Positions 28,662 through 37,233 of a stretch of DNA of 37,233 bases are shown one piece after another (within the stretch, counting starts at the first letter, position 1; the number at the start of each line of letters is the position of its first letter). A program made the translations under genes and the position numbers. Under the pieces are notes generated by a model. That model did no database searches. It saw only the letters and a list, made by a program, of their open reading frames with translations, and had not been told where the DNA came from. Location: NCBI GenBank assembly GCA_038063455.1, contig JBBTVB010000006.1, positions 1-37,233 on the forward strand. The letters are read 5' to 3'. This DNA comes from Patescibacteria group bacterium (GTDB taxonomy: Bacteria > Patescibacteriota > Patescibacteriia > PEXW01).

Positions 28662-30263
28662 TTAGGAAAGTAAGTTGCGACCCGTCATGTCTGGGGGCAC
28701 GGGTAAACCTAAGGTTTCCAGCACCGTCACGGCGACATCAGCCAGAATGCCAACCGGCTGCACGCTATTCAAGGCTTCCACCCCGCCCGGCAGCTGGTAG
28801 GGCGACGCGTCTTTCCACTGATTCGCCACTGCAATAAACGGGACGGGACTGGTGGAATGTTCTTTATCAATAGCGCCGGTTTGCAAGTTGAGCAACTCTT
28901 CGGCGTTGCCGTGGTCGGCGGTAATGTACAGCACGCCGTCTGCCGCCAGGACTGCATCCGTCAACTGGCCCAGGCACTCGTCGAGCACTTCCAGTGCCTC
29001 AATGGTCGCCTGAAAATTTCCGGTGTGCGCCACCATGTCAGCATTGGCGTAGTTAACCACGTAAAAGTTGTACGCGCCGGCATTGAGCTCTTGCACTAGG
29101 CGGTTAGTAATGTCTCGTGCCGCCATCGCGGGTTTCTGGTCGTAGCTGGAGACGTGCGGGCTGGGAATGAGTGCGTGGTCTTCACCAGGGTAGGCTTGCT
29201 CGTGGCCGCCATTAAAAAAGTAGGTTACGTGCGCGTACTTTTCGGTTTCCGCAATGTGCAACTGCTTGAGCCCTCCCTCCGAAATAACTTTTGCTACCGG
29301 CGAGGCAATATCTTCGGGCGGGAAAGCGACAGTGACCGGTAAATCTTTGTCATATTCGGTCATCGTCACAAAGACCAGGTGCTGCAGGTACGTGCCACGG
29401 TCAAATTTCTCAAAGCCGGGCAGCACGAACGCCTTGGTCAGTTGGCGCATGCGGTCGGGCCGGAAGTTAAAGGTAATCACGCTGTCACCATCCTGAATCT
29501 TCCCAACGGGCTGGCCCGAAGCATCAGTGATGACTGTCGGCGCAAACTCTTCGTCCAATACGCCTTTGGCATAGCTGGCGCGAATCAAGGCCAGGGGGTC
29601 GGAGCCTTTCTCTGGCGACTCACCAAACACCATGGCCCGGTAAGCTTTTTCCTCGCGCTCCCACCGATTATCGCGGTCCATGCCCCAAAAACGACCAATC
29701 ACCGTGGCAATTGCCCCGACACCCACTTCCTTCATGTGGGCCTGAAGTTTACCAATAAAATTTTCTGCGCTCTTCGACGGCGTATCGCGGCCGTCTAAAA
29801 ATGTATGGATGAACACCTCGTGCACGCCCTGCTGCTTGGCCAACTCCAGCAAGGCGTACGCGTGCTCGTTAAAACTATGCACGCCGCCAGAGCTCATCAA
29901 GCCCACCAGGTGCAAGCGCGATTTTTTTTGCTGGACATTTTCAATGGCGCTAAGAAACGCCGGGTTGGTAAAAAAACTCCCGTTGGCAATGGCCCGGTTA
30001 ATCCGCGGCAAACTCTGGTAGACAATTTTACCCGAGCCCAGATTCATGTGGCCGACTTCGGAGTTACCCATCTCGCCCCACGGCAAGCCAACGGATTCGC
30101 CCGACGCTTGCAAGGTCATGGCCGGGTAGTGCGCGACGAGCTCGTCGTAGTGCGGCAATTTGGCAATGGTATAGGGGTTGCTGCGGCTGGGTGGCGCCAC
30201 GCCCCAGCCGTCCAGCACCACCAGGACCAGCGGGCGCAAAGCTGGGTTCGTAGGGTCAGGCAT
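28662..30263 (-). CDS. gpmI: 2,3-bisphosphoglycerate-independent phosphoglycerate mutase (paralog 2)
   Basis: LDGWG, GNSEVGH, GGVHS, DGRD, NFRPDR, AETEKYAHVT, ADMVAH, TADHGNAE. Confidence 0.96.
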   Translation of the reverse strand: MPDPTNPALRPLVLVVLDGWGVAPPSRSNPYTIAKLPHYDELVAHYPAMTLQASGESVGLPWGEMGNSEVGHMNLGSGKIVYQSLPRINRAIANGSFFTNPAFLSAIENVQQKKSRLHLVGLMSSGGVHSFNEHAYALLELAKQQGVHEVFIHTFLDGRDTPSKSAENFIGKLQAHMKEVGVGAIATVIGRFWGMDRDNRWEREEKAYRAMVFGESPEKGSDPLALIRASYAKGVLDEEFAPTVITDASGQPVGKIQDGDSVITFNFRPDRMRQLTKAFVLPGFEKFDRGTYLQHLVFVTMTEYDKDLPVTVAFPPEDIASPVAKVISEGGLKQLHIAETEKYAHVTYFFNGGHEQAYPGEDHALIPSPHVSSYDQKPAMAARDITNRLVQELNAGAYNFYVVNYANADMVAHTGNFQATIEALEVLDECLGQLTDAVLAADGVLYITADHGNAEELLNLQTGAIDKEHSTSPVPFIAVANQWKDASPYQLPGGVEALNSVQPVGILADVAVTVLETLGLPVPPDMTGRNLLS

Positions 30264-31821
30264 GGGGGGTGCAGAATAAGCTGGAGCCAGTCATGGTCTC
30301 GGGTTTTTTTACCGCCATAATATTCAGGATGGTAGGCGCAATGTCCGCCAGGCGGCCGGATTTTTTGAGCGCGAGTTTACGGTATTGTCGGTTGACGTAA
30401 ATGAACGGCACGGGGTTGGCCGAGTGCTCAGTGTCGACCTCGTGGGTGCGCAGATTTTTCAACTCTTCAATATTGCCATGGTCTGCAGTAATAACCAGGG
30501 AACCGTTGACTGCGAGTACCGCACGACGTAGCTGCCCCAACGCCGCGTCAACCGCTTCCACCGCAGCAATCGACGCCTGCAAGTGCCCAGTGTGCGCCAC
30601 CATGTCTGGCGCCGCAAAGTTTAGCGCAATAAAGTCGTGGGACTTTTTTCGGATAGCGGCCAGCACGGTGCGTACCAAAGCAGCCGTCGACATGGCTGGT
30701 TTCATGTCGTAGGTAAGCACCTTGGGTGAAGGGATAAGCACGCGGTCTTCACCGGCCACGGGGTGGTCGTACCCACCGTTGAAAAAGTACGTCATGTGGG
30801 CGTACTTCTCGGTTTCCGAAACGTACAGCTGGCGGTACGCGGTGAGCGCCATGGGCAAGGTGTCTGGAATGTCACGGCTGGGGAATGCCGAGAGCACGCC
30901 GGGCAAGTCTGGACCAAAGTCCGTCATAGCAACAAAAACGAGATTCTTCAAAACTTTGGTGCGTCGAAAACCTTTAAAGTGCGGTTGGACAAAAGCTTTG
31001 GTAAGTTGCCGCGCGCGGTCACTGCGTAAGTTGAAAAAAATAATTGAATCGTTGCTACCAACGGTCATGGGCTTTTCTTTCTCGCCAGCCACCGTCGTGG
31101 GCCGGATAAATTCGTCGCTCTCATTACGGTTGTACGCTTCTAAAATTGCAGTTTCCGCACTCTCGCTGCGCTGGCCAGCACCAAGGGTGAGTAGGTCGTA
31201 GGTCTGCTGAATACGGCTCCAGTGCTGGGCGCGGTCCATGGCGTAGTACCGCCCGGTCACGCTGGCAATGCGCGTGCCGTTGAGTGTGCGTTCCATTTTC
31301 TTCAAGAGTTTAATGGCCGCAAACCGCGGACTATCCCGCCCGTCCGTAAACAAATGCAAGGCCACGCGCGGCAGCTTGGAGAGCTGTGCGAACGTGAGCA
31401 AAGCTAGCAGGTGATCTGGGTTGGCATGTGCGCTCTGGCTGTTGCCCAGCATGCCCATGAGGTGCAAAGTGGACTTGTGCTTGCGCACGTGCGTGACGGC
31501 CCGGATAAACGCAGGATTACGAAAAAAGCTGCCATCACTTATATCGTGCGAAATGTAAATCGTATCCTGCAACACCACCCTGCCGGCACCAATATTCAAA
31601 TGCCCGGCTTCGGAGTTGCCATCCTGACCTTTACCTAAGCCCACATCTTTGCCGCCCGCATGCAGCTGCGTGTGCTGGTACTGGCGCAGCAGCGCACTGT
31701 AGTTGGGGGTTTTGGCCAGTGCAATGGCATTGCCCGGTCCAGGTTTGGCAATCCCCCAGCCGTCCATGATTGCCAAAACAACTGGCAGCTGCGGTTTAAA
31801 AATGGGACAGCGCTCACGCAT
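30256..31821 (-). CDS. gpmI: 2,3-bisphosphoglycerate-independent phosphoglycerate mutase (paralog 1)
   Basis: MDGWG, GNSEAGH, DGRD, GRYYAMDR, NLRSDR, ETEKYAH, PDMVAH, TADHGNIE; start set at MRERCP overlapping the eno stop. Confidence 0.95.
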   Translation of the reverse strand: MRERCPIFKPQLPVVLAIMDGWGIAKPGPGNAIALAKTPNYSALLRQYQHTQLHAGGKDVGLGKGQDGNSEAGHLNIGAGRVVLQDTIYISHDISDGSFFRNPAFIRAVTHVRKHKSTLHLMGMLGNSQSAHANPDHLLALLTFAQLSKLPRVALHLFTDGRDSPRFAAIKLLKKMERTLNGTRIASVTGRYYAMDRAQHWSRIQQTYDLLTLGAGQRSESAETAILEAYNRNESDEFIRPTTVAGEKEKPMTVGSNDSIIFFNLRSDRARQLTKAFVQPHFKGFRRTKVLKNLVFVAMTDFGPDLPGVLSAFPSRDIPDTLPMALTAYRQLYVSETEKYAHMTYFFNGGYDHPVAGEDRVLIPSPKVLTYDMKPAMSTAALVRTVLAAIRKKSHDFIALNFAAPDMVAHTGHLQASIAAVEAVDAALGQLRRAVLAVNGSLVITADHGNIEELKNLRTHEVDTEHSANPVPFIYVNRQYRKLALKKSGRLADIAPTILNIMAVKKPETMTGSSLFCTPHA

Positions 31822-33073
31822 GCGCTTCGAGCCAAATTTCGAGAAGGCGGTTGTACTTGGCCAAACGTTCACCCCGGCTCATGGAGCCGGCTTTTAGCCC
31901 ATCCGCGCCTACGGCCACAGCGAGGTCGGCAATGGTGGTGTCGGTGGTTTCGCCTGAACGGTGCGACACGATAATTTTGTAGCCGTGCTTTTGCGCCAAC
32001 TGAATGGTGGCAATGGTTTCTGAAAGGGTGCCAATTTGGTTGACCTTAACCAGGATGGCATTGCCAACCTTGGCATCGATACCTTTTTGGAGGCGTTCTA
32101 CATTGGTCACGAACAAGTCATCGCCCACCACCCACATACCAGCAGCGGCCAGGGCTGTGGTGTGGCTCGGCCAGTGATCCCAATCATCTTCGGCTAAACC
32201 ATCTTCCACCGAGAAAAGATGATACTTTTGGTGCCACTCTACATACAGCGCAGTCAGTTGATCGGCCGAAAGCCCTTTGCCTTCCAGCAGCAGCGGGTAC
32301 GTGCCGTCAGGTTTGGCAAGTTCGCTCGCTGCTGCATCCATAGCCAGCAGCACATCTGACCCTAGGCCATAGCCGGCGCTAGCAACCGCCTCGGCCAGAA
32401 GTTGCAACGGCTCTTCGTTGGTACGCATTTTCGGGGCGTAGCCGCCTTCGTCACCAACGAGGGTGGAAAGCGCTTTGCCTTTGAGAACGCTGCCGAGGGT
32501 GTGAAAAATTTCAGCTGTGCAGCGGAGCTGGTCTGGAAACGAAACTTGCTGCGGCACCAGCATGAACTCTTGAAAGCTTAAGCCCGAGTCTGGCGCGTGC
32601 ACGCCGCCATTGATCACATTGCAAAATGGTTTGGGGAAAGTTGTGGGTACAGTCAATCCGTACTGCTGCTGCAAGAACAGGTACAGCGGCGTGCCGGCCG
32701 CAACAGCCGCCGCCCGGGCAGCCGCCAAAGAAACGCCAAGAATTGCATTGGCACCGAGTTTGGATTTGTTTGGCGTGCCATCAAGGGCAATAAGCGTTTC
32801 ATCAATTTTTCGCAGGTCAGCTACTGGCATGCCAACCACAGCGCTTGCAATGGGGCCAGTGACATTACCGACCGCTTGCAGCACGCCTTTGCCGCCAAAC
32901 CGTTTGGCATCGCCATCGCGCAATTCTAGTGCTTCGTGGCTGCCCGTGGACGCGCCAGACGGGACCGCTGCCGTACCTGTGCTGCCGTCATCCAGCCGAA
33001 CCGTAACTTGCAGGGTCGGGTTGCCGCGGGAGTCGAGAATTTCCAGTGCTTCGATAGTCGATAGAGTCGCCAT
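31814..33073 (-). CDS. eno: Enolase
   Basis: EILDSRGNPT, VPSGASTG, LGANAILGVS, QEFM, GDEGG, VKVNQIG, SHRSGET, ERLAKYN. Confidence 0.98.
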   Translation of the reverse strand: MATLSTIEALEILDSRGNPTLQVTVRLDDGSTGTAAVPSGASTGSHEALELRDGDAKRFGGKGVLQAVGNVTGPIASAVVGMPVADLRKIDETLIALDGTPNKSKLGANAILGVSLAAARAAAVAAGTPLYLFLQQQYGLTVPTTFPKPFCNVINGGVHAPDSGLSFQEFMLVPQQVSFPDQLRCTAEIFHTLGSVLKGKALSTLVGDEGGYAPKMRTNEEPLQLLAEAVASAGYGLGSDVLLAMDAAASELAKPDGTYPLLLEGKGLSADQLTALYVEWHQKYHLFSVEDGLAEDDWDHWPSHTTALAAAGMWVVGDDLFVTNVERLQKGIDAKVGNAILVKVNQIGTLSETIATIQLAQKHGYKIIVSHRSGETTDTTIADLAVAVGADGLKAGSMSRGERLAKYNRLLEIWLEAHA

Positions 33074-35385: not shown

Positions 35386-36207
35386 CTATGGGCTAGAATG
35401 CTCTTCACCTAAGATAAAAACCTCTCCACCAATTGGTGTATCTGGCCGGGGGAAAATAATTCGCTGATTCGGTTTTGCTCTATACGTCATTTCGCCATCC
35501 CAGGCAAAGGGTTGATTCGCAGGAAGTACCTCAAAGTCAGAAAAATCTTTTGCAAAACGAAAGTCTGCTGACTGCTTCATGCCAATAGTAGTAACGGGAA
35601 TATATCGTTTAGCAGTCATTTTTGGCTGCACGCCATCAACGTGCTTTCGGATTAAAAGAAAGCCCTGAATGGCCTGATGCGCAAGCGCAGTGGCAGTCCC
35701 TGGGTCAAAAATTGATCCACACTCTGCACAAAGCCCAATTTTACCTTGGCTATGCATGTAGCTGTCTGTAGACCCTGGCTCAAGCTCGGCCCACCCAGTA
35801 GAAATAATTGTAAAAGGCAAGAATTGGGCGAGTGTGATTCCTGCGCCTTCAGCAATGATAAAGGGTGTTGTGTGTCTACTATTGCTTGCGTGTAAATCTA
35901 GCAAGGCCGATGCTTGGTCAAGTATGGGTGCCAGCTCGGCTGCTCGCCGCGCTTCATAACTAGCGCCAGCTTTACCCACCAGAAAACACCGATTGAGATT
36001 TTCTTCAATATAGCGAATCCCCCGTTCTACAGCTTTTGGATTGCCAAGAACCATAAAGACTGTACCGCGTTGAATACGTAACGGCGTGTACTGCTTAAAA
36101 GCAAGCAATCCCGACTGCTCGTTTCCATGTACTCCCGCCATAATCACACTGGTGGGGCCAGGTTGCTTACCATCAACACGTGTTACGCCGAGAGGCAAAG
36201 GCTGCAT
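35386..36207 (-). CDS. Succinylglutamate desuccinylase/aspartoacylase (M14 carboxypeptidase-like) family protein
   Basis: GVHGNEQSG, GNPKA, NLNRCF, LDLHA, AECG; start set at MQPLPL. Confidence 0.88.
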   Translation of the reverse strand: MQPLPLGVTRVDGKQPGPTSVIMAGVHGNEQSGLLAFKQYTPLRIQRGTVFMVLGNPKAVERGIRYIEENLNRCFLVGKAGASYEARRAAELAPILDQASALLDLHASNSRHTTPFIIAEGAGITLAQFLPFTIISTGWAELEPGSTDSYMHSQGKIGLCAECGSIFDPGTATALAHQAIQGFLLIRKHVDGVQPKMTAKRYIPVTTIGMKQSADFRFAKDFSDFEVLPANQPFAWDGEMTYRAKPNQRIIFPRPDTPIGGEVFILGEEHSSP

Positions 36208-36227
36208 AGAATGAATAAAATGAGGAT

Positions 36228-36270
36228 TTGACAAGGATACGTACATAGTATACTTTAGTCAAGTAAAGTA
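36228..36270. promoter_or_regulatory. Overlapping divergent promoters with a 20-bp palindromic operator (36251-36270)
   Basis: Plus strand TTGACA(36228)-17-TACTTT; minus strand TTGACT(36262)-17-TATCCT; operator TACTTTA-GTCAAG-TAAAGTA. Confidence 0.75.
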
Positions 36271-36278
36271 CTATATTT

Positions 36279-36599
36279 ATGCCTACGTGGTATACCAAAC
36301 AATCGAAGGCCCTGTTCCAGGCTATCCTGCACCTTCGCTCACCCAGCGAAGCCAAGCGCTTCTTTCGCGATCTGCTGACGGAAGAAGAAATCTTGGAGTT
36401 TAGCCGGCGCTGGGAAGCAGCGCAACTCTTGCGACAGGGCGCGCCATACACAACGATTGTGCGGCGTACCGGCTTAAGCTCTACCACAGTAGCCCGCGTG
36501 CAGCGGTGGCTGAAGGGTAGCCAGGGTGGCTATCGCCTTATGCTCGCACGCCAGCATCATACCGACCGCCTTCATCATTCCCGTTTGAAAGAGGCGTGA
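36279..36599 (+). CDS. YerC/YecD family TrpR-related transcriptional regulator (HisR-like)
   Basis: LFQAIL.L....EAKRFFRDLLT.EEI....RW.AA.LL..G.PY.TI...TGLSSTTVARV.RWL..G.GGY; extra C-terminal His-rich tail. Confidence 0.9.
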   Translation: MPTWYTKQSKALFQAILHLRSPSEAKRFFRDLLTEEEILEFSRRWEAAQLLRQGAPYTTIVRRTGLSSTTVARVQRWLKGSQGGYRLMLARQHHTDRLHHSRLKEA

Positions 36600-36620
36600 G
36601 CTGAAATTTTTGCAGCCTAC

Positions 36621-36644
36621 TCCCCTCTCAAGCGAGGGGATTTT
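36621..36644 (+). terminator. Intrinsic terminator, possibly an attenuator
   Basis: TCCCCTC-TCAAGC-GAGGGGA-TTTT, lying between the regulator and the GNAT gene. Confidence 0.6.
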
Positions 36645-36682
36645 AGATACACAATGTTCATGAACAACGAAAGGAGAAATGC

Positions 36683-37233
36683 ATGGATACCATATCCTAC
36701 GATAGCTTCAGGCCAACACGTGACACAGCACTGATGCAAAAGCTTATTCTGTGCTACCAGAATGTCTTCAGCGCCTCACCCTGGTTTGAGTGGAAACGCT
36801 GCACTACGTGCAACCGCAAATGGGGACGCGAGCAAGAAACTGAAATTCAGTGCATGCGGTGCCCAAAGTGCGGCTCGGCTCTCACCGACTTCTGGCCGAG
36901 TGATGTGGTAGAGCAGGACATCTGCAAAGAGCTTACGCTTCCCGGCGCATCCTGCTGGCTCGCCTGCCACAGGGAGAAAATTGTTGGGTTTTGTTGGGGC
37001 TATCCTATAGCCCTCATAGCTTTGGAAGAGAAACTTGGCATTGCCTGTGCTACACCCATTCAACATACGTATGGGAATATTACCCAAGTAGCATACCAGG
37101 ACGAAATCGGTGTAGAACAAAAATATCGCGGCCACGGGCTAGGAAGCATGCTCTTTAACTTAAGAAAAAATGACTTCCTCAAGCAGGGCCTGCACATTGG
37201 GGTGGTAAGAACTAAAACCCAGCCGCCAACCGT
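36683..37233 (+). CDS. GNAT family N-acetyltransferase with an inserted zinc ribbon; 3' end runs off the window
   Basis: Not in the ORF track (no stop). AAGGAG SD, then my translation MDTISY..YQNVFSASPWFEWKRCTTC..CPKC..IVGFCWGY..DEIGVEQKYRGHGLG (acetyl-CoA binding motif A). Confidence 0.85.
   Translation, partial: MDTISYDSFRPTRDTALMQKLILCYQNVFSASPWFEWKRCTTCNRKWGREQETEIQCMRCPKCGSALTDFWPSDVVEQDICKELTLPGASCWLACHREKIVGFCWGYPIALIALEEKLGIACATPIQHTYGNITQVAYQDEIGVEQKYRGHGLGSMLFNLRKNDFLKQGLHIGVVRTKTQPPT

Follow-up and report, generated by a model that had tools for sequence, protein, structure and literature searches.

A conserved, probably functional histidine attenuator at the end of the hisR repressor gene in Patescibacteria

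The end of a hisR gene in this patescibacterial genome is formed by a conserved and, we are rather confident, functional histidine attenuator. To judge from the sequences, hisR in this bacterium and in many of its relatives is probably both a repressor gene and a ribosome-read sensor for the next gene, and we consider it very likely that repression by HisR and the ribosome-read His attenuator make up a two-layer histidine switch within one gene. An earlier note on this DNA had proposed that one gene combines His-dependent repression with His-tRNA attenuation, and this proposal is supported by conservation and covariation in relatives. Leader-peptide attenuators are as a rule looked for among tiny ORFs of untranslated leaders, so that one inside the end of an annotated regulator would be overlooked. 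If the reading is true, a repressor gene is under simultaneous selection as protein and as RNA sensor, and two-layer amino-acid control exists in Patescibacteria, which are often regarded as nearly unregulated. The reading also makes testable whether transcription and translation are coupled in these bacteria and which genes are turned on at histidine shortage; this gene set is worth asking about, since most of the controlled genes encode uncharacterised enzymes.

The hisR gene, its operator and its neighbours

The window, i.e. the whole stretch of 37,233 nucleotides that was analysed, is the start of contig C6 in an 850-kb, 87%-complete genome assembly. Within it, hisR/yerC occupies positions 36279-36599 on the forward strand and encodes a TrpR-family repressor of 106 aa whose His-rich extension is about 15 residues long. 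The YerC core claimed by the earlier note is borne out, as the product of this ORF scored 65.1 bits against TIGR02531 (cut-off 42.2) and also matched PF01371. Profile matches to 3G1C, 3FRW and 3KOR had E-values of 5e-23 to 7e-21, and these Firmicute homologs of solved structure have no His tail within the aligned stretch.

A predicted HisR-type palindromic operator with 7-bp arms and a 6-nt spacer, following the consensus of PMC9413887, is located at 36251-36270 (no strand assigned). It overlies the likely -10 element of hisR: a sigma-70-like promoter was read by eye on the forward strand, with its -35 hexamer at 36228-36233 and its -10 hexamer at either 36249-36254 (15-nt spacer) or 36251-36256 (17-nt spacer). 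The consensus promoter scan did not pick up this putative promoter (36228-36256), and the same layout is repeated upstream of hisR in the closest relatives. The operator matches the search pattern perfectly by construction, the pattern being the site itself. By profile and operator, the sequence at 36279-36599 is that of a HisR/YerC protein, for which His-dependent DNA binding is predicted; HisR of R. gnavus together with histidine has been shown to bind DNA and to repress its own promoter (PMC9413887). No second operator within two mismatches of the pattern was found in the 850-kb assembly, and a wider HisR regulon in this genome was rejected on this ground.

An AstE/AspA-like gene (35386-36246, reverse strand) is divergent from hisR, and a promoter-like site belonging to it (36262-36234) overlaps the operator. 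As AstE-like genes come up again after the cassette in relatives (5 of 80), the gene may be co-repressed with hisR. It is, however, only 29% identical over 101 aa to one of these downstream genes, and it is missing at the same place in the congeners seen. Elsewhere in the window, a cofactor-independent phosphoglycerate mutase-like gene (28662-31872, reverse strand; named by eye) is present twice, as divergent copies in tandem, after enolase and phosphoglycerate kinase genes. Beyond the window, C6 carries an apparently AT-rich cluster (L001:2868-10526) of large membrane sensor-kinase-like, ThiF-like and acyl-transferase-like genes and two membrane proteins, likewise named by eye from translations.

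The controlled gene encodes a GNAT acetyltransferase of 218 aa with a Cys-rich insert. It starts at 36683 on the forward strand, runs past the end of the window (37233) to C6:37339, and is preceded by a Shine-Dalgarno-like site read from the sequence at 36669-36676 (forward strand). The earlier note had spoken of a GNAT operon, which did not hold up: identification of the genes beyond the window showed that the GNAT gene stands alone, a terminator of its own lying 20 nt past the stop and a convergent Nudix gene coming next, and a larger operon downstream of hisR was rejected on these grounds. The HisR target in this genome is accordingly one GNAT gene only, his-gene targets being seen in relatives. 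Sequence searches of the Atlas and the PDB with the GNAT returned only generic GNATs; that it acts in histidine scavenging or modification is a guess, with at best about an even chance of being right.

Among 107 fused loci, i.e. those in which hisR carries the His tail, the first downstream gene belongs to the family of this GNAT in 18, and is hisG in seven, hisI/E in five and hisS in three. Genes for hisG, hisI/E or hisS are thus next in 15 of the 107 loci, and a his gene lies within four downstream ORFs in 19 of them and in none of the other 88. Other first genes encode SLOG, AstE/AspA-like, radical SAM, phosphorylase and histidine-racemase-like proteins (the last below its family cut-off), and Pfam gave no match at 1e-6 for 34 of the 80 first genes that were scanned. 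Recurring downstream families without an NCBIfam match (L124:4349-5245, L208:1199-2101, L195:4385-5116, L061:3026-3844, L121:1501-2403 and L053:2383-2850) are candidates for a histidine-linked pathway. An operator with at most two mismatches is present upstream of 89 of 108 fused loci, 10 of 45 short loci and none of 107 control windows. The operators and the 15 loci with hisG, hisI/E or hisS next back the histidine specificity of the system independently.

Histidine codons and competing RNA structures at the gene end

The C-terminal end of the hisR product reads QHHTDRLHHSRLKEA, and the stop codon is a TGA at 36597-36599. Both CAT-CAT pairs reported by the earlier note are present on the forward strand (36555-36560 and 36573-36578) and in frame as His-His. 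The first pair aligns with conserved His columns of the family alignment and likely provides the sensor codons. The position of the second pair is not conserved, the closest relatives having none or one His there, and this pair is probably secondary. Two His-His pairs within the last 16 residues occur in one of the 746 ORFs of the genome, and four or more His within the same stretch in three of the 746. The genome has a single tRNA-His (GUG), and CAT makes up 34% of its His codons; CAT is read more slowly, by wobble.

The RNA around the stop codon (all features on the forward strand) can be divided into the segments of an attenuator. Segment 1, the protector (36567-36572), pairs with 36591-36596 in the minimum-energy fold if free of ribosome; this 1:2 hairpin, unmentioned in the earlier note, belongs to the switch. 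Segment 2, the 5' arm of the antiterminator (36577-36603, core 36585-36603), spans the last codons and the stop, and pairs with segment 3 (36613-36631), which includes the 5' arm (36621-36627) and the loop of a predicted intrinsic terminator. This terminator (36621-36644) is the 3:4 hairpin and was called terminator-like by the hairpin scan. The pairing and the terminator had both been proposed before, and recalculation gave the same picture: 14 Watson-Crick pairs, one G-U and four mismatches between 36585-36603 and 36613-36631 (-12.6 kcal/mol), and a terminator hairpin of -12.9 kcal/mol with a U-tract as short as described (A followed by four T).

Viewed within this genome alone, the pairing is unremarkable. 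The gene end is equally likely to pair with the terminator arm in 20 of 86 terminator-bearing genes, 12 of 200 shuffled sequences fold as well as the locus, and synonymous recoding of the locus gave p = 0.2; significance of the pairing from this genome alone was rejected on these values. Terminator-like hairpins are found 3' of 113 of 745 ORFs in the whole genome (six in shuffled controls), of which 29 (26%) lie within 12 nt of the stop and the mode is 18-23 nt. Stop-to-terminator distance can serve as a sign of uncoupled transcription. The distance at hisR, 22 nt, is the modal and hence ordinary value of the genome, and it was therefore rejected as evidence of attenuation. No match to any of 4227 Rfam families, including His_leader (RF00514) and T-box (RF00230), was obtained at 10 loci including this one, and when the genome was scanned with the RNA model, the next match after the locus itself was terminator-only (E 0.006). 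Because the pairing is unremarkable here, evidence beyond chance must come from relatives.

Conservation and covariation in relatives

TIGR02531 gave 156 matches in all, in 124 of the 401 genomes of the class. The core-model sample comprises roughly the best 110 of the 156, the weaker matches being left out, and 80 further loci, a set biased towards tails, were added via a scan with the tail-containing alignment. Of 180 distinct ORFs in the pooled sample, 15 were excluded (score below 70, truncation or lack of the anchor motif), which left 165 hisR ORFs: 111 fused, 45 short and nine other. Close homologs of the hisR locus come mostly from Patescibacteria lineages, and other labels were taken for misassignments.

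The earlier note had called for an alignment of YerC homologs from these lineages, and it shows that His-rich tails are kept across Patescibacteria: 105 of 114 family tails of 14-32 aa contain at least two His in the full sample, as do 49 of 58 when only the core-model sample (105 loci) is considered. His accounts for 15.7% of the 1756 tail residues. The tail is absent from all of the non-Patescibacteria controls, which are few (three plasmid-collection records and three PDB chains). The first His codon of the tail is CAT in 94 of the 111 fused loci, CAT usage is 73% in tails compared to 48% in downstream genes, and the CAT share of the tail exceeds that of the downstream genes in 46 of 56 loci and falls below it in seven.

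The rest of the protein displays the opposite trend. Tailed proteins have 3 His in 9232 core residues (3 of 111 proteins), whereas short proteins have 67 in 3706 (32 of 45 proteins), and in fresh loci (n = 26) core His was found in none of 19 tailed compared to four of seven short proteins. The depletion is by far strongest for His (log2 ratio -5.5), the next residue being Cys (-1.9). The HisR of this genome is one of the three tailed exceptions, with one core His codon. However, it should be underlined that some of the contrast between tailed and short proteins may be inherited, since 54 of the 81 His of untailed proteins are confined to three columns, the hisR tree is poorly resolved (84 columns for 165 rows, with 89 of 162 branches open), and only two well-supported pairs were available to the independent-pairs test of core His loss (p = 1).

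The RNA elements are conserved as well. A terminator of -8 kcal/mol or better is present in 97 of the 109 fused loci with enough flank, at a median of 27 nt past the stop, and the gene end pairs with the terminator arm in 86 of 97 family members, compared to the 20 of 86 control genes. The antiterminator arm starts at a median of 21 nt after the first His codon (interquartile range 20-23), and in 78 of 91 loci synonymous recoding makes the fold of the segment from His to stop less stable. For covariation, 88 of the 97 loci were aligned, nine with long inserts or doubtful terminator calls being excluded. In the antiterminator helix 79.6% of cells are paired (70.0% after shuffling, 41-58% in slid registers), with 139 double changes compared to 47.6 after shuffling; all 12 of 12 pairs show double changes and none of 500 shuffles reached these values on paired cells or double changes, counts that are inflated by relatedness and that refer to a helix register picked by eye on the same alignment. 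The terminator helix has 87.6% of its cells paired and 125 double changes (31.5 after shuffling). The covarying terminator and antiterminator pairs that the earlier note had suggested looking for thus exist, the latter in the register it had given, and both tail and alternative pairing, whose lack of conservation would have spoken against the proposal, are conserved with compensatory changes across Patescibacteria. Judged from the alignment, mutually exclusive antiterminator and terminator are kept by covariation across the family. Cognate arms pair with -16.8 kcal/mol and non-cognate arms with -12.2 kcal/mol, but only 13 of 97 loci have their best partner in their own arm. When 29 loci from across the phylum, three of them already in the sample, were scanned with an RNA model built from the alignment, it hit the 3' region of hisR in 21.

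These data also bear on the possibility that the tail serves the protein, through metal binding, DNA contact or His sensing, and that an ordinary gene-end terminator only incidentally resembles the arm upstream of it. His clusters are able to bind metals, and both the typical stop-to-terminator distance and the comparable pairing in ordinary genes of this genome would fit. Still, we regard this as very unlikely: pairing is far more frequent in the family than in the controls and is accompanied by compensatory changes, the stop codon wanders from 5 to 17 codons past the first His while the RNA arm stays about 21 nt away, the CAT preference is a signal at the codon level, and the HisR proteins of solved structure have no tail.

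The attenuator reading is favoured over a protein role also by a split form, in which the His cluster, arm and terminator are found on separate small ORFs. In about 25 of the 105 core-model loci, called by eye, with three lacking a script-listed ORF and with no control set, HisR is short and the His cluster sits on a small ORF of its own that comes after hisR. Since these leaders mostly carry an antiterminator arm and a terminator like those of the fused loci, the tail is, on this sequence evidence, a leader able to exist fused or free. In one clade of such loci (L012, L038, L050, L051, L056 and L083) the free His leader is separated from the short hisR by a long palindrome of another kind, which suggests a changed operator and a second promoter. 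Six tail-less HisRs (L019, L020, L021, L024, L025 and L028), five of them upstream of hisS or hisG, have His codons within the fold; at these loci a long stem (-20 to -38 kcal/mol) is predicted to join the codons that directly follow the His pair with the 5' arm of the terminator, with tight spacing. His codons inside the fold are possibly a third way to embed an attenuator. At locus L221, a second full-length match to the attenuator model (L221:2491-2602), about 600 nt downstream of the first, suggests tandem His attenuators.

The family switch could also be real while the copy studied here is eroded or nearly constitutive, with a weak arm, four mismatches and a short U-tract, so that the GNAT gene is only partly controlled. 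Its arm pairs with -11.4 kcal/mol, compared to the family mean of -16.8, and 36 of 96 foreign terminator arms are better partners for it than its own; the result of recoding, the four T of the U-tract and the one core His codon point the same way, and hisG, hisI, hisE and hisD were not found in the 87%-complete assembly, in which hisS is present. On the other hand, hardly any change in either the arm or the terminator arm is seen in three congeners, whose proteins share no more than 66-68% identity. A perfect operator is in place, the flip coincides with the first His pair in the model, and the congeners as well as other terminators of the genome have similarly short U-tracts. We therefore consider erosion of this copy unlikely.

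Predicted ribosome control and known systems

The two layers would operate as follows. In the first, we infer that histidine-loaded HisR occupies the palindrome at its own promoter and thereby dampens transcription initiation. In the second, the last 15 codons of hisR would act as the leader peptide of a four-segment attenuator. When charged tRNA-His is ample, the ribosome would reach the stop and cover segment 2, the 3:4 terminator would form, and only hisR mRNA would be made. When charged tRNA-His is scarce, the ribosome would stall at the first His-His pair and cover segment 1, so that segments 2 and 3 pair and RNA polymerase reads into the GNAT gene. A likely benefit is that the attenuator would keep the basal transcription needed by an autoregulated repressor from leaking into the target gene.

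Folding models that assume a ribosome footprint of 12-15 nt past the A site conform to this scheme. At this locus the terminator (1:2 plus 3:4) is favoured without a ribosome, and at equilibrium the antiterminator prevails solely while the A site lies between 36555/58 and 36564/67. Once the ribosome has come to the second His pair, the terminator is favoured again at equilibrium, while the truncated transcript keeps the antiterminator until 36576-36579. The worry of the earlier note that a ribosome at the second pair would partly cover the arm was thus justified, and in the models it is the first pair that opens the antiterminator. Across the family, the terminator exceeds 0.5 in 96 of 97 loci when the ribosome sits on the stop, and the antiterminator does so in 95 of 97 truncated transcripts when it sits on the first His. 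In full equilibrium the antiterminator is formed in 54-60 of 97 loci with a ribosome at the first His, compared to 42 without. The computed folds thus have the spacing of an attenuator: a stalled ribosome frees segment 2 and a stop-bound ribosome blocks it. The antiterminator is, however, already formed without a ribosome in 83 of 97 truncated transcripts, and the switch would consequently depend on a ribosome that keeps pace with the polymerase over 92 codons.

This dependence leaves room for control by the ribosome that is not tightly coupled His-specific attenuation: the switch could report general translation failure or stop occupancy, or act mainly via mRNA stability, and the His codons would then modify it only modestly. 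In the modelled truncated transcript the antiterminator can form with a ribosome anywhere upstream of about codon +3, Rho had no match over the cut-off in the genome, 26% of terminators lie close to stops, and most downstream genes are not his genes. It is nevertheless highly improbable that such control accounts for the data, as the core His depletion goes far beyond that of other residues, the distance from His codon to arm is fixed, his genes and hisS recur downstream, and NusG is present in the genome.

Beyond the His-specific switch itself, a broader reading has in our view slightly more for it than against it when taken as a whole. It describes a widespread Patescibacteria cassette in which the repressor frame has turned into a tRNA-charging sensor, with His removed from the fold and massed at its end, fused and split forms interconverting, and perhaps a third form with His in the fold. 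Histidine shortage would then at once free the operator, hold the unfinished repressor on the ribosome and open the terminator, and the cassette would mark a His-starvation gene set (Cys-insert GNAT, AstE/AspA-like hydrolases, histidine-racemase-like, SLOG and radical SAM proteins) in host-dependent bacteria.

In the literature searched, most subscription papers being outside its coverage, no description of a fused repressor-attenuator architecture was found. The HisR regulon of PMC9413887 and the hisR locus have in common a TrpR-family protein over the TIGR02531 cut-off, a 20-bp operator of the Firmicutes type and, as a prediction for the hisR locus, autoregulation, and hisR is first in its operon here as in Proteobacteria and Elusimicrobium (PMC9413887). 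In that study, whose main text mentions neither 'Patescibacteria' nor 'candidate phyla', leader peptides were sought only where HisR and T-boxes were absent, and attenuators were reported as replacements of HisR. In the hisR locus, by contrast, both are placed in series in one gene, often with a non-his target.

With the hisL and trpL attenuators of enterobacteria and the His-leaders of the B. cereus group, Peptostreptococcaceae and Erysipelotrichales (PMC9413887, PMC2965389), the locus shares tandem cognate codons, the 1:2, 2:3 and 3:4 pairings and the preference for the terminator when the ribosome reaches the stop. Firmicute leaders have 3-5 His codons in a row (PMC9413887), whereas hisR tails have two to four. 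The leader here makes up the 3' end of a functional gene, for a repressor of 106 aa, and not a short dedicated ORF of the hisL type; a short, dedicated, non-functional leader is found only in the split relatives. The hisR locus would work like hisL, yet it is not a hisL. The hisL leader itself has seven His codons in a row.

The closest precedents for a functional ORF in the role of sensor are YtgCR and rph-pyrE, each of which differs in signal or logic. In the YtgCR protein of Chlamydia trachomatis (PMC7755916), a WWW motif likewise places cognate codons within a repressor ORF, where they sense amino-acid shortage via the ribosome and alter termination. There, stalling promotes termination, lowers the repressor and de-represses a distant promoter, and the repressor senses iron (PMC7755916). 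In the hisR locus, unlike YtgCR, stalling is predicted to prevent termination and turn on the next gene, and repressor and codons would sense one and the same amino acid. In rph-pyrE of E. coli (PMC2784333), as is predicted for hisR, an intercistronic attenuator is governed by how a full-length functional gene is translated and where its stop codon lies, but the signal is the pyrimidine level, amino-acid sensor codons are lacking, the upstream gene encodes a nuclease rather than the repressor of the pathway, and a ribosome near the hairpin relieves termination. The split Patescibacteria form comes close to the series control by TrpR and trpL in E. coli, whereas the fused form does not. In the E. 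coli trp system, TrpR repression by the free amino acid and trpL attenuation by charged tRNA act on one transcript, with trpR unlinked and trpL a separate ORF of 14 codons.
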